A DNA stretch of 64,000 nucleotides, from contig JBAZXR010000001.1 of the NCBI GenBank assembly GCA_041659765.1, positions 787,338 to 851,337 on the forward strand. The letters run 5' to 3'. This stretch comes from Patescibacteria group bacterium. GTDB lineage: Bacteria > Patescibacteriota > Patescibacteriia > UBA9934. The translations under genes and the position numbers were made by a program. Of this stretch, positions 1 to 64,000 are shown one piece after another; the first letter of the stretch is position 1; each line of letters opens with the position of its first letter. Below the pieces are notes generated by a model. The model worked only from the letters and a program-made list of their open reading frames with translations. It had not been told where the DNA came from and made no database searches.

Positions 1-1960
<1,960 letters not shown>

Positions 1961-6630: not shown

Positions 6631-8454
6631 ATGAACCTAGCATATGGACTCTTGGGAATCCTCACCTTCATGCCCGCTTTGTCTGCTCTACCCGCCAGTG
6701 CGGAAGAGGCACCCGAAGCCGCGATCATCGAAACGGCTCCTGCCGAAGCAGTGACCACCCTGACGGAGGACGCGGGAGTGCCCGCGCCCTTAGACCACCC
6801 CCCGGCCCCCTCCTTGGCAGGAGGGGAAGTAAGCGAACCACCCCTGACTGATCCGTGCGCGATCTGCCCGATCCCAGTAGTCGCCGTTGCGCCGGCTGTT
6901 CCACTGCCAGAACCCGTCGTTACTCCTGCGCCGCCGGAACCAATCGCCGTACCGGTAGCTACCATGGCTGAAGGCACGGAGGAGCCGGCGATGACGACCG
7001 CACCTATTCCCACGCCAACACTGAAACCTGCCCCATATACCGCGCAGTCCGTACTCATCAACGAATTCGTTTCTGATCCTGTAGACGGTGTTGAATGGAT
7101 CGAAATTGTGAACACCACAGAAGATGAAATCGATCTGACCGGCTGGACGGTAAAGGACGCGACAACGAGTAAAACTGCGCTTTCCACGCAATCACTTCCA
7201 GGACACGCGTACTTCGTCCTCCAAAACCCGAAAGGCAAGCTCAATAATGACGGCGATAGCATCTTCTTGTTTGACCCGACCGGCGCCACCATAGATGCGA
7301 TCTCGTATGACAAAACAACCGCGCCACAGAAAGGAAAATCGCTCGCTCGGACAGAAGACGGATCGTGGAAATCAGGAGACCCTACCCCACTAGCACCTAA
7401 CACATTGCCGACCCCTCCATCTGCCCCAGTGGCGGATGGAGCGGCCAGCTCCGAACCTACGACGTATGAGACAACACACGACACTACAGCCACTATCACT
7501 AATCCTGAACCCAATCCGGGAACGGCTCAAGGGACTGACAATGTTACCGGAACCGCATCCCCTGTTCGGGTGGAGCGCGTCACTCCGGTGGAAGAAAGCA
7601 TAAGTGCCGCGAGTACGCGGCCCGCAACCACCGACTCCCCCGTAGCCCCCTCGGGCATAGGCCCTACGGGCGAGCCCACTTTGAAAGCGGGGGAAGTACA
7701 CCAATCCACACCAGTCATCGACGCGGCGGAGATCATTAACTACGACGCGAATTCGACAGTCACTGTCGATGGCGTGCTCGTGGCAACGCCGGGAACATTC
7801 GGCAGACAGCTCGCGTACATTGACGGACTGGAAATCTACTTCAACAAAGCTGATTGGCCAAAGCTCTCGCCTATGACGCGTGTGCGCATGACCGGAACCG
7901 TAGACGTCAAAGCCAATTACACTCGCTTAAAGATCAAAAAGCGATCAGATGTCAAAATTATCGGTGATGACGCGGTTGCTCCGGACGATCTTGAAACGCT
8001 CGACGACGCCCGGCACGGACTCCTCATGAGCCTGTCCGGTTCCGTTCTAGACGTCGCCGGCAAAAAACTCACTATCGGGCTCTCTAACGGCGAACTCATT
8101 GCAGCAACCTCGGCAAAAGACGCATTAGTCGACTTTTCAGCCCTTGCTTATGATGACCAAATCGCGGTGACAGGGATCATTCGACTCGTCAAAGAAACCT
8201 GGACGCTGACGATTCTTGATCAATCAGGTTTGACCACCCTGACTGGAGGCGCGGGGGTGTCCGCGCTTACGACCACCGACTCCCCCGTAGCCCCCTCTTT
8301 GAAAGAGGGGGAAGTTCCCCACCCGCTTGCGACAATCAAAGCACCGACGAAATCGGTTCCCTGGGTTGGCGGCGGGTTACTCACTACAAGCATTGGCGCT
8401 CTTGGCTACTGGTTCGCCAAAGCTAAAGGCATTACGCTACCTTCATTCACTTAA
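6631..8454 (+). CDS. surface protein with signal peptide, Pro/Ala/Thr-rich linker, lamin-tail domain (LTD), OB-fold-like region and C-terminal TM anchor
   Basis: 607 aa; MNLAYGLLGILTFMPALSALPASA signal peptide; LINEFVSDPVDGVEWIEIVNTTEDEIDLTGWTVKD...GHAYFVLQ...NNDGDSIFLFDP matches the LTD consensus; C-terminal LLTTSIGALGYWFAKAKG hydrophobic anchor. Confidence 0.7.
   Translation: MNLAYGLLGILTFMPALSALPASAEEAPEAAIIETAPAEAVTTLTEDAGVPAPLDHPPAPSLAGGEVSEPPLTDPCAICPIPVVAVAPAVPLPEPVVTPAPPEPIAVPVATMAEGTEEPAMTTAPIPTPTLKPAPYTAQSVLINEFVSDPVDGVEWIEIVNTTEDEIDLTGWTVKDATTSKTALSTQSLPGHAYFVLQNPKGKLNNDGDSIFLFDPTGATIDAISYDKTTAPQKGKSLARTEDGSWKSGDPTPLAPNTLPTPPSAPVADGAASSEPTTYETTHDTTATITNPEPNPGTAQGTDNVTGTASPVRVERVTPVEESISAASTRPATTDSPVAPSGIGPTGEPTLKAGEVHQSTPVIDAAEIINYDANSTVTVDGVLVATPGTFGRQLAYIDGLEIYFNKADWPKLSPMTRVRMTGTVDVKANYTRLKIKKRSDVKIIGDDAVAPDDLETLDDARHGLLMSLSGSVLDVAGKKLTIGLSNGELIAATSAKDALVDFSALAYDDQIAVTGIIRLVKETWTLTILDQSGLTTLTGGAGVSALTTTDSPVAPSLKEGEVPHPLATIKAPTKSVPWVGGGLLTTSIGALGYWFAKAKGITLPSFT
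7626..7700. repeat. G/C-rich hairpin repeat, copy 1 (in-frame inside LTD gene)
   Basis: accaccgactcccccgtagccccctcgggcataggccctacgggcgagcccactttgaaagcgggggaagtacacc; shares its 5' 26 nt and 3' hairpin with copies at 8272 and 21683. Confidence 0.6.
8272..8320. repeat. G/C-rich hairpin repeat, copy 2 (in-frame inside LTD gene)
   Basis: accaccgactcccccgtagccccctctttgaaagagggggaagttcccc; contains the perfect palindrome cccctcttt-g-aaagagggg. Confidence 0.6.
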
Positions 8455-8464
8455 TATCTAACGC

Positions 8465-8486
8465 GGGTCGACGCATGGGTCGACCC
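8465..8486. repeat. 22-nt REP-like hairpin GGGTCGACGCATGGGTCGACCC (intergenic copy)
   Basis: Perfect 8-bp stem GGGTCGAC/GTCGACCC; identical 22-mer at 11479; near-identical at 62754; diverged at 21149. Confidence 0.55.
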
Positions 8487-8510
8487 CAACCTCGAAATAA
8501 TAACTATCAT

Positions 8511-8756
8511 ATGGAAAATACAAACAAGGCTCCGAAGAAGACATGGTATGACGTTCTTGAAGAACGCTATAACACTCTCATGGTGAAATTCGACATGCCG
8601 GAAGATATTGCCCACGAGATCTACAGCTTCATCAATGAAATTGCCCGAGAACAGTATAAGAGTGGCAACAAACAAGGCATTAGCTGGCTTCTCAAGAAAC
8701 AAGCGATCGAAGGTATACGACCACGAAATCTGGCCGCTGCTCCAGTCGCTGTCTAG
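8511..8756 (+). CDS. hypothetical protein
   Basis: ORF-track 8475 start lies inside the hairpin repeat, so the start was moved to MENTNK. Confidence 0.4.
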   Translation: MENTNKAPKKTWYDVLEERYNTLMVKFDMPEDIAHEIYSFINEIAREQYKSGNKQGISWLLKKQAIEGIRPRNLAAAPVAV

Positions 8757-11325: not shown

Positions 11326-12363
11326 ATGTCGCCGAAATCATCCTTACTTCTCATGCTTCTCGGAACCACGGTCTTAACCGGGTTTCTTGTCGTGCCCCCG
11401 TTCACGAGCGTTACATACCGAGCAACCAATCCGACCAGACATTACCTGACGCTGGCGGGGGCGCGATCCGTTGAAGGAGGGTCGACGCATGGGTCGACCC
11501 CTACCTCCGCGACTATTCAATTCGTGGGCGATATCATGCTGGCGAGAAATGTTGAACAATACATTGCGACCTACGGCCAGGATTATCCTTTTGCAAAAGT
11601 TGGCGATCTGCTTTCAAATAATGATTTATTGATTGGAAACTTCGAAGGGACAGTTCGCGCAAAGCAAAATATCGAGGGAACGAATGTCATGTACTTTGAT
11701 ACAACTCCGGATAACGTGTCCATGCTCGCAAAACAGGGTTTCGGCCTCTTATCACTATCGAATAACCACGCGGATGACTTCGGTCGGGACACACTAGTGC
11801 TAACTCGACAGACAATTCTCGACGCCGGTATTACACCCTTTGGCGATGCCTGGGAAAGCGAGAAATTCGTAGCGCATAAAACTATCAATGGAATGAACTT
11901 TGCGTTTATCGGCTACCACGAATTCAATGAGAAGACCGACGGCGTGATCGAGGCAATCAAAACAGAGAAAGCGGCGGGAAACTTTGTCATCGTCATGCCA
12001 CACTGGGGAGTTGAGTACAAACATGATCCGTCGGGTTCTCAAGTTTTTGCGGCACATCAGTTTATCGATGCCGGAGCTGACGCGATCATTGGCGCACATC
12101 CGCACATTATTGAAACCGTTGAAACGTACAAGAACGTTCCGATCGTTTACTCGCTTGGCAATTTTCTCTTTGACCAGGATTGGTCGGAAGATACGAAGCG
12201 GGGCATGGCGGTTCGGTTAACCGTCGAAAACGAAAAGCTGACGCTCAAATTCGAACCGTTGTATCTCGAAAAAAGACAAATGACCCCAGCAACGGGAACC
12301 AAGAAGCAAGAAATGCTGGATGCGCTCGGGGTGACGACGGGAGTGCTCGAACTCAGTCGATAA
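11326..12363 (+). CDS. CapA/PgsA-family metallophosphatase-like protein (poly-gamma-glutamate capsule synthesis family) with N-terminal anchor
   Basis: 345 aa; GDIMLARNV..., NNHADDFG, GAHPHII motifs characteristic of CapA family. Confidence 0.7.
   Translation: MSPKSSLLLMLLGTTVLTGFLVVPPFTSVTYRATNPTRHYLTLAGARSVEGGSTHGSTPTSATIQFVGDIMLARNVEQYIATYGQDYPFAKVGDLLSNNDLLIGNFEGTVRAKQNIEGTNVMYFDTTPDNVSMLAKQGFGLLSLSNNHADDFGRDTLVLTRQTILDAGITPFGDAWESEKFVAHKTINGMNFAFIGYHEFNEKTDGVIEAIKTEKAAGNFVIVMPHWGVEYKHDPSGSQVFAAHQFIDAGADAIIGAHPHIIETVETYKNVPIVYSLGNFLFDQDWSEDTKRGMAVRLTVENEKLTLKFEPLYLEKRQMTPATGTKKQEMLDALGVTTGVLELSR
11479..11500. repeat. 22-nt REP-like hairpin GGGTCGACGCATGGGTCGACCC, in-frame inside capA-like gene
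   Basis: Identical to 8465 copy; translated in frame as (E)GGSTHGSTP(TS) in the linker between anchor and catalytic domain. Confidence 0.6.
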
Positions 12364-19796: not shown

Positions 19797-19826
19797 CGAG
19801 TCCCGCAAGGGACTCGTTTTTTTATG
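19797..19826 (+). terminator. rho-independent terminator
   Basis: acgagtcccgcaagggactcgt hairpin + ttttttt. Confidence 0.65.
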
Positions 19827-21654
19827 GCCACTTTGGATTGATTTCTACACCGGTATAGAAGTATTTGAGAATTGACTGCCAATCCTTCCCCTCCTTAGCC
19901 ATACAGATGGCACCGGAAGCGGACATACCTACGCCGTGGCCCCAAAGGGTCTTACCAACATCACAGGGAACCGGTACAGACTTGGCGTAAGGCACATTAC
20001 CGCCCCAGACCTCTGACCAATCGCGAGTCCTACCGTCTGAACGTGAGAAGAACGAGGTAATAGCCGTGTCTCCATTGTAAGTAACGATTAATCCGCGAGT
20101 AGCGAGCACGCCGGCAGTAATTCTCGGTGTACGCGCCTCCTGGTCGTAGCCCCAATAAACCTGATCGCGGTAAGCGTCTACGTGGAAACCCTCGGCCTTA
20201 TGCTTTGAGGCGTGTGTCCAGTGATAAAAGGCGTAGGTTCTAGCGGCCGTCATCAGCGTTTTCTGGAACTCGGGGTGTGAAAGGTCTGAAGTTTCGGCGA
20301 GTCCTCGCAGGTAAAGCTCGATAGGAAGCTCATTAATCACCCACACCCGATCATTCGGCAAGTTCCACCTGAGTTCGAGGACATTGCGAAACGTGTTATT
20401 AGCAAAAGACGTACCACGAGTGACTCGACGATCAAAATTGGTGATGGTCATGACCGCGTTCGGTGTTTTTGGCACGAATCGCAAAGGCTTAGCACTCTTC
20501 TTATGTGCGCCGTCATTATAAAGATACGTCGAGCCGTCCCACGCCGCTCTAATCTCCTTCCCTTTTGGGTATGAGCCTAGAACAGTTCCGGTTTCATCAG
20601 TCAGGTCAAAATCACTCTCGAAAGAAGTGATTGCCACCTCATCCTTAGTCTCCTCGTCGACCACTAGAACGCCTACGCGAATGGTTGGTTCGTCGATTTG
20701 TTGTAGAACCGGTGTCACGTTCTCGTTGGCCGGTGCGGAAAAAACCTCCGCCGAACCACCCGTGACCTCCACAGGAATCTCGACGAACATCCCCGGAATA
20801 CTCAGATCATCCGCCGTGATTTGGAATTTGGCCGTCTGCAAGCCATTAACATTTGGCGCGGTGAAGAAAAATTGCATGGCGGCCGTCTCGCCTGGCTTAA
20901 CTTTCTGCGAAAGCATCGCGACTTTCTGGCCCTGCCAGCTCAGATGGCGGAAATCACTTGCCCCAGAGGCCATACTGACATCCGGTGCCGTCAAACCGAT
21001 GTTTTTCCAAGTGGCAGTCCCAGTATTCTTTACAACAACGGAAAAAGACACCGTCTTTTTCGCCAGTACCTTGAGCTTGGTCGCGGATTGGGTGACGATC
21101 GAGGCCGAATACCCTGCAATGCCGGATGAAGATGGCGCAGCCGTTGTAGGGGTCGACGCCCCCGTCGATCCACCCGCGTTCGACGCCACCGTAATATTCA
21201 ACGTGAATTCCCCGCCCGTGACCCAAGCCAAGTCTTGGGAGGCCAGGGCGAAGGTCTCCTTGTACGTTCCAACAGTCTTCGGTGCCTTCAGATTGAACGC
21301 AAATGTACTGACAGCACCCGGTTTTACCGAGCTTTCGATCATCCGCTTAACCTGTGAAGGTGACAACCATGAGCCGGGATCAAAAACGCTCGCGCGATAC
21401 TTTGGGCCGTATGTATAGATAGAAATGTAACCTTTGCCGTCATTTGCCCAGGTGGATGACCCCTTATTTTGAAAAGAAATGGCGATGTTCTTCACTTCCC
21501 CTGGAGTCATCGAAATGTTTCCCCCTCCCGTCGTAGTTACTCGAAGAGCTGAATACGGGGCTGTCGAGGCTGCTGAAACCGAGAGTGGCACGCCCAAAAC
21601 TAGCGTTGCCAGCAACAAAAACCCCGAACAGGCTCTTTTAAGAAGAGAAGGCAT
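19822..21654 (-). CDS. secreted SpoIID/LytB-domain protein with N-terminal Ig-like (CARDB/NBR1-like) repeats
   Basis: 610 aa; signal peptide; C-terminal region YLRGLAE...FQKTLMTAARTYAF...AYRDQVYWGY matches SpoIID/LytB. Confidence 0.75.
   Translation of the reverse strand: MPSLLKRACSGFLLLATLVLGVPLSVSAASTAPYSALRVTTTGGGNISMTPGEVKNIAISFQNKGSSTWANDGKGYISIYTYGPKYRASVFDPGSWLSPSQVKRMIESSVKPGAVSTFAFNLKAPKTVGTYKETFALASQDLAWVTGGEFTLNITVASNAGGSTGASTPTTAAPSSSGIAGYSASIVTQSATKLKVLAKKTVSFSVVVKNTGTATWKNIGLTAPDVSMASGASDFRHLSWQGQKVAMLSQKVKPGETAAMQFFFTAPNVNGLQTAKFQITADDLSIPGMFVEIPVEVTGGSAEVFSAPANENVTPVLQQIDEPTIRVGVLVVDEETKDEVAITSFESDFDLTDETGTVLGSYPKGKEIRAAWDGSTYLYNDGAHKKSAKPLRFVPKTPNAVMTITNFDRRVTRGTSFANNTFRNVLELRWNLPNDRVWVINELPIELYLRGLAETSDLSHPEFQKTLMTAARTYAFYHWTHASKHKAEGFHVDAYRDQVYWGYDQEARTPRITAGVLATRGLIVTYNGDTAITSFFSRSDGRTRDWSEVWGGNVPYAKSVPVPCDVGKTLWGHGVGMSASGAICMAKEGKDWQSILKYFYTGVEINPKWP
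21149..21177. repeat. diverged variant of GGGTCGAC hairpin (ggggtcgacgcccccgtcgatccaccc), in-frame in SpoIID-like gene
   Basis: On the minus strand encodes GGSTGASTPT, the same peptide register as the capA-like copy. Confidence 0.45.
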
Positions 21655-21682: not shown

Positions 21683-21742
21683 AGCCACCGACTCCCCCGT
21701 AGCCACTCGGGCGAGCCCCTCTTTGAAAGAGGGGAACGCAAC
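21683..21742. repeat. G/C-rich hairpin repeat, copy 3 (intergenic)
   Basis: gagccaccgactcccccgtagccactcgggcgagcccctctttgaaagaggggaacgcaacc. Confidence 0.6.
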
Positions 21743-62633: not shown

Positions 62634-62753
62634 GTATTCCTCCTGCCAGAGGGTATATCGACACAAAGATGCTTGGCAAATGAAAAAGCCCTCGACCTGA
62701 GTCGAGAGCCATTCCAATAACCACCACCTCCAAGCCCCTCCTAACGTCGGGGC

Positions 62754-62775
62754 GGGTCGACGCAGGGGTCGACCC
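62754..62775. repeat. REP-like hairpin variant GGGTCGACGCAGGGGTCGACCC abutting tig stop codon
   Basis: One loop substitution versus the 8465/11479 copies; likely acts as tig terminator stem. Confidence 0.5.
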
Positions 62776-64000
62776 CTACTTCACCATCATCTTCTTGAGG
62801 AACTCGACTACTTTGCGGTTGCGGACCTGGTGTTCGATGCGGTCGCGGAAGGCTGGGGAATAGACGTATTCCTTTGCTTCCTTGTTTTCGCCAACGGTTT
62901 TCGCTACCTCATCGACTTCGTTGTCGATTTCTTGAGAGGCAGGATCGATCTTTTCGATTTTAGCCACTTCGTTCAGGACAAGAGCGACTCTTAGGCGCGT
63001 AATGGCCTGTGGGGTGAAGTCTAACTTCATCTCTGTTTCTGATTTTCCGATCGAGGAGATGTACTTTTCCCACTCCATGCCCTGGTCAAAAACCCACTGC
63101 TTGAGTTCTGAAACCATCTTGTCAATCTCCTGGTTAACGAGGAGATCGCTGAACTCATCAAAATTAGATTTTTCGGCGAGTAATTCGAGCAACGCTTTTT
63201 CCTGGCGACGTGATTCTTCAACGGCCTTTTCTGCGCTCAAATTTTCCGTCAGTTTCTTTGTCAGTTCGTCCACAGATCCAATGCCGAGTGATTTGGCGAA
63301 CTCGTCATTATAATCAGGGAGTTGAATCGCGAAAATTTCGTTCAGCTTCACGGTGAAGTCCACATTTTTTCCGGCAATGTGCTTCTGATAATGATCCGTT
63401 GGGAACATGAGCGCGAAGGTTCGTTCCTCGCCCTCCTTTGCTCCGAGGATCGCCTCGACAAAGCCCGGAATGTAATGCGGCTCATTTGTGTACACCGCAT
63501 GGTTTTGTGCTTCGCCTCCCTCAATCGTTACGCCGTCTTTCTTCATCGTCAAATTGACGACTGCCTTGTCACCCTTCGCGAGCGGGCGACCAGCCTCGGC
63601 CTTCGTCTCCTTCATCTTCATGGTCATGAGATCGGACTTGGCCTTTTCGACCATCTCTGGAGTTGCGCCGGCTGGTTCGGCCTTGATTGACAGCGTCTTG
63701 TAGTCTGCAAGTTTGGTTACTGCTGGCATGAGAGACATTTCTGCCGTAAACACGAGATCATTACCCGGCGCCATCTTTTCTACGCCAAAATATGGCTGGC
63801 CAACAGTTTCTAAATCTTCCTCGATCATGGCTTTGACGAACGCGTTCCTTATAAGTTCCTCGGATGCGGCTTCGAGCAGTTTCATCTCGCCCATACGCTT
63901 CACGACCGTTTCATACGGGGCCTTCCCTGGGCGGAAACCCGGGATGCTGGATTCCTCACTGACGTGTTCAGCGGTATGTTTCATTCCGGCGAGCACTTCT
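62776..64000 (-). CDS. tig: trigger factor, partial (N-terminus beyond window end)
   Basis: GFRPGKAP PPIase-region motif and trigger-factor C-terminal domain. Confidence 0.85.
   Translation of the reverse strand, partial: EVLAGMKHTAEHVSEESSIPGFRPGKAPYETVVKRMGEMKLLEAASEELIRNAFVKAMIEEDLETVGQPYFGVEKMAPGNDLVFTAEMSLMPAVTKLADYKTLSIKAEPAGATPEMVEKAKSDLMTMKMKETKAEAGRPLAKGDKAVVNLTMKKDGVTIEGGEAQNHAVYTNEPHYIPGFVEAILGAKEGEERTFALMFPTDHYQKHIAGKNVDFTVKLNEIFAIQLPDYNDEFAKSLGIGSVDELTKKLTENLSAEKAVEESRRQEKALLELLAEKSNFDEFSDLLVNQEIDKMVSELKQWVFDQGMEWEKYISSIGKSETEMKLDFTPQAITRLRVALVLNEVAKIEKIDPASQEIDNEVDEVAKTVGENKEAKEYVYSPAFRDRIEHQVRNRKVVEFLKKMMVK

Follow-up and report, generated by a model that had tools for sequence, protein, structure and literature searches.

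A short palindromic DNA repeat, referred to here as REP-1, recurs in a 64,000-nt stretch of the genome of a Patescibacteria group bacterium (Patescibacteriota; Patescibacteriia; UBA9934; assembly GCA_041659765.1, contig JBAZXR010000001.1, positions 787,338 to 851,337 of the forward strand), hereafter the window, in whose numbering coordinates are given unless a locus (L-number) is named. With a probability of roughly 0.85, REP-1 is a 26–27 nt repetitive extragenic palindrome (REP) of the GTAG type that forms a small dispersed population in Candidatus (Ca.) Uhrbacteria and is accompanied, in related genomes, by a REP-associated tyrosine transposase (RayT). The observations that carry this reading are the repeat itself, a compensated hairpin with an attached foot, RayT genes in relatives that contain cognate copies, presence or absence of the element as an exact 27-nt difference, re-use of one site by different REPs, conservation at orthologous sites, and variants peculiar to one genome.

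The initial annotation, made from the DNA letters alone, had described a 22-nt REP-like hairpin located both between genes and in frame within them. This 22-mer, GGGTCGACGCATGGGTCGACCC, is the hairpin core of a longer, oriented repeat; reading the flanks of the window copies together with those of 27 further copies from public genomes gives the full unit GGGTCGAC-GCATGG-GTCGACCC-CWAC, and the symmetric 22-mer is therefore replaced by a unit of 26–27 nt with a GTAG or GTTG foot. The reverse complement of the unit reads GTWG followed by the 8-bp hairpin, which is the signature of GTAG-tagged REPs, defined as G+C-rich hairpins with a GT[AG]G foot (PMC2817692, Nunvar 2010; PMC3733652, Di Nocera et al. 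2013). The oriented 3′ tail C[A/T]AC, which places GTAG or GTTG next to the hairpin on the other strand, is found in 23 of 26 subfamily-A copies, the foot being GTAG in 13, GTTG in 10, GTCG in two and GTAC in one. The G-T-N-G frame of the conserved foot is thus kept, with position 3 looser than the canonical A/G.

Folded as single-stranded DNA, the element forms an 8-bp stem with a 6-nt loop (−8.3 kcal/mol, z = −3.2) and a GGG/CCC stem bottom, and so has the stable palindrome of 20–40 nt expected of a REP. Among 18 distinct variants from these genomes, double (compensatory) changes are seen in four of the eight stem pairs (G1:C22 to T:A, G3:C20 to A:T, T4:A19 to C:G, and C8:G15 to T:A), 97.9% of stem cells are paired, and there are no one-sided changes of the G:U type; the observed covariation was reached in none of 500 shuffles. 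Because compensation is fully Watson–Crick on both strands and lacks G:U intermediates, it points to recognition at the DNA level rather than to an RNA-only structure. An alternative hairpin involving the tail, GCAGGGGTCGACCCCTAC, was rejected as a by-product of the GTCGAC core, the 8-bp stem being both the minimum free energy fold and the one supported by covariation. No curated family in Rfam 15 matches the element at gathering score, the only matches in the window being large-subunit rRNA and five tRNAs.

Exact-match scanning of the window agrees with the earlier placement of identical 22-mers at 8465–8486 (+) and 11479–11500 (+), and a copy with one mismatch (loop T to G) lies at 62754–62775 (+); matches with three or fewer mismatches were absent from 100 dinucleotide-preserving shuffles of the window, which holds three to four copies in 64 kb. 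Copy 1 (8465..8490, +; GGGTCGACGCATGGGTCGACCC+CAAC) is intergenic, 10 nt past the stop codon (8452–8454) of a lamin-tail-domain (LTD) surface protein gene (6631..8454, +; Pfam PF00932) and 20 nt before the ATG at 8511 of an 81-aa open reading frame (ORF; 8511..8756, +), in whose 5′ untranslated leader it is situated; the start of this ORF was assigned from the L012 orthologue, and the ORF has no Pfam match. Copy 2 (11479..11505, +; 27 nt, nine codons) lies in frame within a gene of the CapA/PGA_cap family (11326..12363, +; Pfam PF09587, E 4.7e-56) and encodes residues 52–60 as GSTHGSTPT in the context E-G-GSTHGSTPT-S. The AlphaFold model of this protein, with a mean predicted local distance difference test score (pLDDT) of 89.7, comprises a helix at residues 3–22, presumed to be a membrane anchor, a coil at residues 23–61 and a catalytic domain from residue 62; the REP residues fall in the coil, where pLDDT is below 50 at residues 38–56 and averages 52 over the block 51–60. 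The earlier placement of the copy between membrane anchor and catalytic domain, in a flexible linker, is consistent with this unstructured, low-confidence segment.

Copy 3 (62754..62779, +; loop GCAGGG) lies in the 3′ untranslated region (UTR) of the trigger factor gene tig (62776..64000, −; Pfam Trigger_N, FKBP_C and Trigger_C), which runs off the window. The single substitution noted previously is real, but the statement that the copy abuts the tig stop codon is too weak: the tail CTAC (62776–62779) is GTAG when read from the minus strand, its initial G completing the final codon, for Lys, and its TAG being the stop codon (62778–62776) itself, so that the gene ends in the REP foot. A terminator scan located an intrinsic-terminator-like hairpin with a T-run downstream of tig (62687..62710, −), beyond copy 3, and this places the copy inside the transcribed tig 3′ UTR. 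The foot GTAG likewise provides the TAG stop of an unrelated gene, that for a RecB/RNase-H-like nuclease (L003:6167-6192); in the relatives L006 and L015, tig has its own TAA stop 11–12 nt before the element.

A more diverged variant had also been noted inside a SpoIID-like gene, at 21149–21177. Its coordinates are corrected here to 21146..21171 (−), where GGATCGACGGGGGCGTCGACCCCTAC differs from the 26-mer consensus at 5 of 26 positions, retains seven of eight stem pairs and is read in frame, as initially described, as GSTGASTPT in a linker between Ig-like domains of a SpoIID/NBR1-Ig-like protein (19822..21654, −; Pfam PF08486 and PF16158). A scan with the 26-mer recovers this site at five mismatches, and nothing with seven or fewer was found in 10 shuffled windows. 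In the nearest orthologues this place is occupied by different S/T/P/A-rich sequence that is just as long, and GST.GSTPT, the reading of an intact REP, is found in none of the 25 closest. The repeat at the SpoIID site is probably a decayed REP copy, although the linker is no longer than in the orthologues.

Outside the window, the Ca. Uhrbacteria metagenome-assembled genome (MAG) CAWGHH01, for which three of four listed contig sizes sum to ~0.9 Mb, contains at least 20 exact 22-mers in five contig records. Three further exact 22-mers are present in the MAG CAYGEQ01, which is labelled Gammaproteobacteria and whose tig locus is 90% identical to that of the window, and two other bins contain one each. 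Together with copies from the fetched loci that vary in loop or stem, the 20 exact matches in CAWGHH01 constitute the many dispersed copies expected of a REP family. Their number is low beside classical families of more than 100 copies but falls within the range given for RAYT group 4, and the density of exact copies is approximately one per 30–45 kb. When stems and foot were searched for in metagenomes with any loop allowed, at least 120 loci were detected, most of them in unrelated organisms with other loops; the loops are diverse, ACATGG being the commonest among the matches listed. The stem-and-foot design is therefore widespread, and it is the GCATGG loop that marks the Uhrbacteria subfamily. 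Some metagenome contigs carry related REPs, with the same stems and foot and other loops, in regularly spaced tandem arrays with periods of ~45, 118 and 163 nt (L057:6071-6187, L084:10942-11058, L091:10921-11182 and L131:1009-1197).

The population is not predominantly extragenic: two of the four window copies and at least 15 of ~27 CAWGHH copies, in a census that covers the fetched loci, are read in frame within long ORFs backed by Pfam or homology. Of the non-coding copies, many precede a start codon by 8–20 nt or lie right at a stop codon, ahead of the terminator.

Comparison with orthologues supports the view that the repeat is inserted DNA and not a motif that evolved in place. LTD orthologues in relatives (L012, L017 and L140) carry REP-1 inside the coding sequence (CDS), where the window LTD gene has none, and alignment of the window with L012 leaves a gap of exactly 27 nt, or nine codons, at the missing copy; another copy that is absent from the window immediately precedes the CapA stop codon of L012. 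At the CapA linker site, a DNA alignment of five orthologues has REP-1 in the window and in L012, a REP-1 variant in L140, a palindrome of a second family, REP-2, in L141, and an empty site in L142. L141 is a close relative of L012 and yet holds this unrelated GTAG-foot palindrome, and L142 is the closest protein relative of the window CapA. The comparison of orthologues that the initial annotation had proposed therefore favours insertion, since the insert is missing at the DNA level from L142/P0122 and P0128 and the LTD difference between window and L012 is exactly one unit; in a further CapA orthologue, P0133, this linker contains a related REP that is translated in another frame (VDTGVDPY). 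L008:1588 and L016:306 represent one orthologous intergenic site, upstream of the same gene, at which the REP points in opposite directions; this indicates re-insertion or in-place inversion.

Where sites are shared, the element is far better conserved than its surroundings. At the spacer downstream of LTD, the CapA linker, the tig 3′ end and AtpG (ATP synthase gamma), six pairwise comparisons involving two or three genomes per site gave 153 of 156 nt identical within the 26-mer, against 69–91% identity, mostly ~78%, in the flanks. The orthologue of copy 1 in L012 is identical at 26 of 26 positions with flanks of ~80%, and those of copy 3 in L006 and L015 at 25 of 26; the choice of A or T in the foot is conserved per site, and synonymous sites of coding copies, including those in CapA and AtpG, are conserved between orthologues. 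In the genome Ga0376277, a variant, GGGTCGAT-ACATGG-ATCGACCC, is present in all five copies found at the CapA/LTD locus and in one RayT-internal copy, the other RayT-internal copy having one further loop base changed (ACACGG); the variant sites thus include the orthologues of the CapA linker and of both copies within RayT. A three-base change that contains a compensatory pair would not be expected to arise independently at each site, and on this sequence comparison the copies appear to have been replaced or homogenized within the genome, whether by RayT or by gene conversion.

RayT genes were detected in two of the related genomes that carry the repeats, at L010:5490-6206 (−) in CAWGHH01 and in L138 of Ga0376277. 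The L010 protein matches Pfam Y1_Tnp (PF01797) with 29.5 bits against a cut-off of 23, a second match to this model scores 23.8 bits, and the best NCBIfam match is REP_Tyr_transpos, below its cut-off (48–53 against 80 bits). The HUH motif is PNHFH and the catalytic Tyr lies in a C-terminal EYIxxNP, aligned across 31 homologues. Within the L010 gene are two inverted REP copies, in frame and 236 nt apart, which encode GVDPCVDP in the N-terminal region and GSTHGSTPT in the loop after the HUH motif. Homologues P0241–P0246 from other Patescibacteria (44–69% identity) have both inserts at the same alignment columns, and in the wider family (3,535 hits) other REP-encoded peptides, for example VGADLRVCP and GQTHGSAPT, occupy the same two places; GSTHGSTPT, GSIHGSTPT, GQTHGSAPT or a similar peptide is carried by the post-HUH loop in most of the 31 aligned homologues. 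In both L010 and L138:10001-10618 (+) the inverted pair, with feet outward, brackets the segment that contains the HUH motif, and a single variant REP precedes the L138 RayT gene by 41 nt. The RayT gene at L005:1429-2121 (−) lacks the N-terminal copy; it has one in the post-HUH loop, and a variant follows shortly after the gene. Both the conserved N-terminal partner and the way in which the pair brackets the HUH segment may represent, for example, an autoregulatory or self-excision feature.

Five of the six frames of the 27-nt unit are free of stops, and the sixth has a TAG only when the foot is GTAG. Usage of the frames is uneven. The sense frame GST.GST.T accounts for ~11 unique coding sites, located in CapA (twice), LTD, AtpG, the RayT loop, SpoIID and, five times, in one polytopic membrane protein; the antisense frame GVDP.VDP accounts for three, all read as GVDP or GVDF, in the RayT N-terminal region, the L003 RecB/RNase-H-like nuclease and an L013 protein resembling leucyl-tRNA synthetase (LeuRS). 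The remaining sense frames, VD..VDP with two unique sites and GR..R.P with one, are read for example as VDAWVDP and GRHRSRP. The favoured frames avoid arginine-rich readings, and the bias presumably reflects selection. Coding copies are not specific to secreted or exported proteins, because AtpG, the LeuRS-like protein, the nuclease, the polytopic membrane protein and RayT are hosts as well; in AtpG, a PDB alignment places the insert in a loop of variable length among solved structures. The L013 host is a putative leucyl-tRNA synthetase by its sequence motifs, and the element within it, at L013:7439 (+) in a minus-strand ORF, is a subfamily-B REP read antisense as VGVDFNVDP. The membrane-protein ORF of 672 codons at L011:2302-4317 (−), for which Pfam gives no match, holds seven REP copies that are all in frame, use three different frames and belong to two subfamilies (loops GCATGG/GCGGGG and AT[CTA]GAA), most of them adjoining hydrophobic segments.

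These features can be combined in the following model. When single stranded, the element would fold into the 8-bp G+C-rich hairpin with its GTAG/GTTG foot, which by analogy with work on E. coli TnpA-REP would be the type of substrate bound and cut by an HUH/Y1 RayT. Copies would be gained, lost or overwritten in units of 27 nt, and the reading frame would be left intact on insertion, since 27 nt equals nine codons and most frames lack stops. Selection would then keep copies only where they are harmless, that is, in short 5′ or 3′ untranslated regions, surface loops and inter-domain linkers, and the frames retained would give a hydrophilic, flexible peptide (GSTHGSTPT in sense, GVDPCVDP in antisense). 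Of the two alternatives offered by the initial annotation, that the element has been domesticated or tolerated within proteins, toleration is supported and domestication is not. We infer that RayT is the agent of REP mobility and acts on single-stranded DNA at replication forks. In 19 of 24 copies (19:5) the strand with the tail is the locally C-rich one; the GTAG foot is then carried by the G-rich strand, which has the sequence of the lagging-strand template.

Several observations weigh against this assignment. Mobility is deduced from comparisons, no transposition event having been directly observed, and no system is known in which RayT has been shown to move REPs in vivo, the existing demonstrations being of cleavage and joining in vitro. 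The strand-bias test is a weak one, depending on the noisy local GC skew of 8-kb pieces and on loci that are partly non-independent. A six-frame motif scan revealed no RayT in the 64-kb window, and the window's own 897,219-nt contig gave no hit among the best 120 RayT homologues, so the partnership between REP and RayT has been established in relatives only. The L010 RayT gene is bordered by terminator-like hairpins in place of the flanking inverted REPs of a REPtron. Copies in the window and in Uhrbacteria are mostly singletons and not REPIN (REP doublet forming a hairpin) elements, the sole close inverted pair being that inside RayT, and ~40% of copies have a GTTG foot instead of the canonical GT[AG]G. 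REP-1 therefore does not fully conform to a strict definition of a REP, given this foot, the absence of REPtron flanking and a distribution that is not chiefly extragenic. Lastly, near-perfect conservation at orthologous sites is also compatible with a function for the host.

The last point is the basis of an unlikely alternative, in which the hairpin is primarily a host-functional nucleic-acid signal at selected, fixed sites, such as a protein-binding site, a stability or translation element of mRNA 5′ or 3′ UTRs, or a signal for chromosome organization or uptake, with the coding copies incidental; such a function would itself be compatible with an origin from RayT. The 98% identity of orthologous copies against ~78% in flanks, which extends to the synonymous sites of CapA and AtpG, is what this explanation would predict, as is the position of many non-coding copies 8–20 nt before start codons or at stops before a terminator, and RAYT/REP systems have been argued to be domesticated and vertically inherited (PMC5581495; PMC6006769). 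A position-specific signal is nevertheless hard to reconcile with presence and absence of copies, the exchange of REP families at one site and the opposite orientations in L008 and L016, and the copies share no common distance or orientation to genes; the full Watson–Crick compensation of the stems, lacking G:U, speaks for DNA recognition over a structure that acts in RNA only. Two specific functions were rejected. The hairpin is not an intrinsic terminator, because no T-run follows any window copy, and a density of one exact copy per 30–45 kb is far too low for a DNA uptake sequence or uptake signal sequence, which occur at about one per kb in Neisseria and Haemophilus.

A protein-level explanation, that GGSTxGSTPT is a convergent linker of exported proteins whose DNA likeness stems from codon usage, is highly improbable. 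It draws some support from the SpoIID protein, where the linker is rich in S, T, P, A and G in all orthologues and the window variant adds no length, and is refuted for the three near-exact copies by the comparisons available: identical DNA is found in non-coding positions and antisense (GVDPCVDP), the element is also read in other frames, all synonymous positions are conserved between orthologues, some orthologues are without the peptide altogether, and the hosts AtpG, LeuRS-like protein, nuclease and RayT are cytoplasmic. The occurrence of the same DNA in non-coding, antisense and coding contexts also upholds the original description of a REP-like palindrome placed both between genes and in frame. 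Chance similarity, or an artefact of assembly or binning, has virtually no standing; beyond the shortness of the motif nothing favours it, none of the 100 shuffles contained a match, and the same element occupies orthologous sites in independently assembled MAGs from NCBI, ENA and JGI. A more speculative extension of the RayT-associated REP reading, regarded as rather doubtful, is that REPs are actively rewritten in place, with RayT-dependent (or gene-conversion) replacement of copies at stable landing sites that the host retains for hairpin function. It is suggested by the copies at fixed orthologous sites (atpG, leuS-like and RayT), which carry the current genome-specific master sequence, and by the single linker site whose occupant, among close relatives, is REP-1, a variant of it, or REP-2.

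The RayT-associated REP-1 has clear counterparts among known systems. In common with GTAG REPs, it is a G+C-rich palindrome of 20–40 nt with a tetranucleotide foot and many dispersed copies, near gene ends and transcribed in UTRs, some of which lie in frame in ORFs that include DNA-metabolism and tRNA-synthetase genes. In-frame intragenic REPs have been published for repair, replication and tRNA-synthetase genes, and neutrality in flexible linkers and loops has been proposed for them (PMC3733652); the coding-REP situation was thus correctly called uncommon by the initial annotation, but it had already been described (Di Nocera 2013; Quentin 2018). Unlike the published GTAG families, which are mostly intergenic, at least half of the Uhrbacteria copies examined are intragenic; they are singletons rather than dimers or bacterial interspersed mosaic elements (BIMEs), number in the tens and not hundreds, have a foot of GTAG or GTTG, and reside in a Patescibacteria genome of ~0.9 Mb. 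Among the papers listed by a full-text literature search, none pairs the phrase 'REP-associated tyrosine transposase' with terms for Patescibacteria or the candidate phyla radiation (CPR).

The transposase fits TnpA-REP subclass 2.4, equivalent to RAYT group 4, as judged by what has been published on that subclass rather than by the authors' profiles. That subclass is characterized by three G-C pairs at the bottom of the REP stem and in-frame REPs inside the tnpA-REP gene (PMC6006769, Quentin et al. 2018), and RAYT group 4 has a low count of ~14 associated repeats (PMC5581495, Bertels et al. 2017). Shared with it are the HUH and Tyr motifs, an enlarged and variable spacing from HuH to Y, patchy taxonomy and low repeat counts, as well as in-frame REPs between HuH and Y, a GT[AG]G foot and three G-C pairs at the stem bottom, these being compared by description. 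The Uhrbacteria RayT differs in its second conserved, N-terminal copy (GVDPCVDP), which forms an inverted pair around the HUH segment, in the absence of REPs flanking the L010 gene, and in an NCBIfam equivalog score of 48 against 80 bits.

Rickettsia palindromic elements (RPEs), as summarized from Ogata et al. (2000) in a later account (PMC3733652), offer a parallel of selfish palindromes in frame in functional genes of a reduced genome, at surface-exposed positions, and the short RPE-4 and RPE-6 have been filed under CGTC REPs, a class apparently without a dedicated transposase (PMC3733652). The Uhrbacteria element has no sequence similarity to RPEs. RPE-1 is ~100–150 bp long and encodes ~30–50 residues. 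With insertion sequences of the IS200/IS605 family (IS608, ISDra2; summarized in PMC6006769), REP-1 shares the Y1 HUH enzyme, a subterminal single-stranded hairpin with an adjacent guide or foot, an association with the lagging-strand template and the lack of a target duplication, and the clean 27-nt indel and strand bias fit this mode; in contrast to those elements, the Uhrbacteria unit contains no transposase, has a single hairpin rather than distinct left and right ends, and is presumed to be mobile. All its main features therefore have precedents, and the element reveals no new kind. What is added is a host among the Patescibacteria, the large proportion of intragenic copies, indels of exactly 27 nt, the occupation of one site by different REP families and a concerted compensatory variant at orthologous sites.

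REP-2, the second palindromic family, has the consensus ~GACTCCCCCGTAG-CCCCCTCTTTGAAAGAGGGGG with a GTAG foot in most copies. Within the window it occurs at 8278–8312 (+) in the LTD CDS, where it is read in frame as TDSPVAPSLKEGE, as a decayed copy at ~7662–7692, and in an intergenic position at 21716–21734; in relatives, it was detected at L013:6833, L140:760, L140:14054, L140:14093 and L141:3078.

Annotation of the CapA gene illustrates a practical consequence of such elements. The public JGI gene call is 279 aa, or 81% of the 345-aa ORF, and from these lengths would start near V67, just past the REP; the 345-aa form with the N-terminal helix is the one favoured by orthologues and by the structure model, and REP copies may mislead start-site prediction. 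An internal translation start formed by AGGAGG and the hairpin-loop ATG at 11471–11491 was considered and rejected, the ATG being out of frame with CapA and the loop ATG of L012 meeting a stop; at the LTD-downstream ORF of L012 the hairpin-loop ATG is also out of frame. At one end of the window (1–1945, −), the 5′ 1,810 model positions of 23S rRNA span 1,945 nt, which suggests an expansion or insertion of ~135 nt; extra sequence in rRNA genes is often seen in CPR.

For annotation, the finding means that gene callers split or truncate REP-bearing genes and that peptides such as GSTHGSTPT, GVDPCVDP and VDAWVDPY are mistakable for motifs. For the biology of the group, it means that a REP/RayT system operates in Patescibacteria (CPR), which have some of the smallest and most gene-dense genomes of free-standing bacteria, and the large intragenic share is explained by the scarcity of intergenic space together with a 27-nt unit that preserves the frame. 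Conservation at orthologous sites, combined with genome-specific compensatory variants, provides a compact natural data set on the homogenization of REPs and the role of RayT, and if copies are indeed rewritten in place, a by-product would be the cassette-like diversification of surface-protein linkers.

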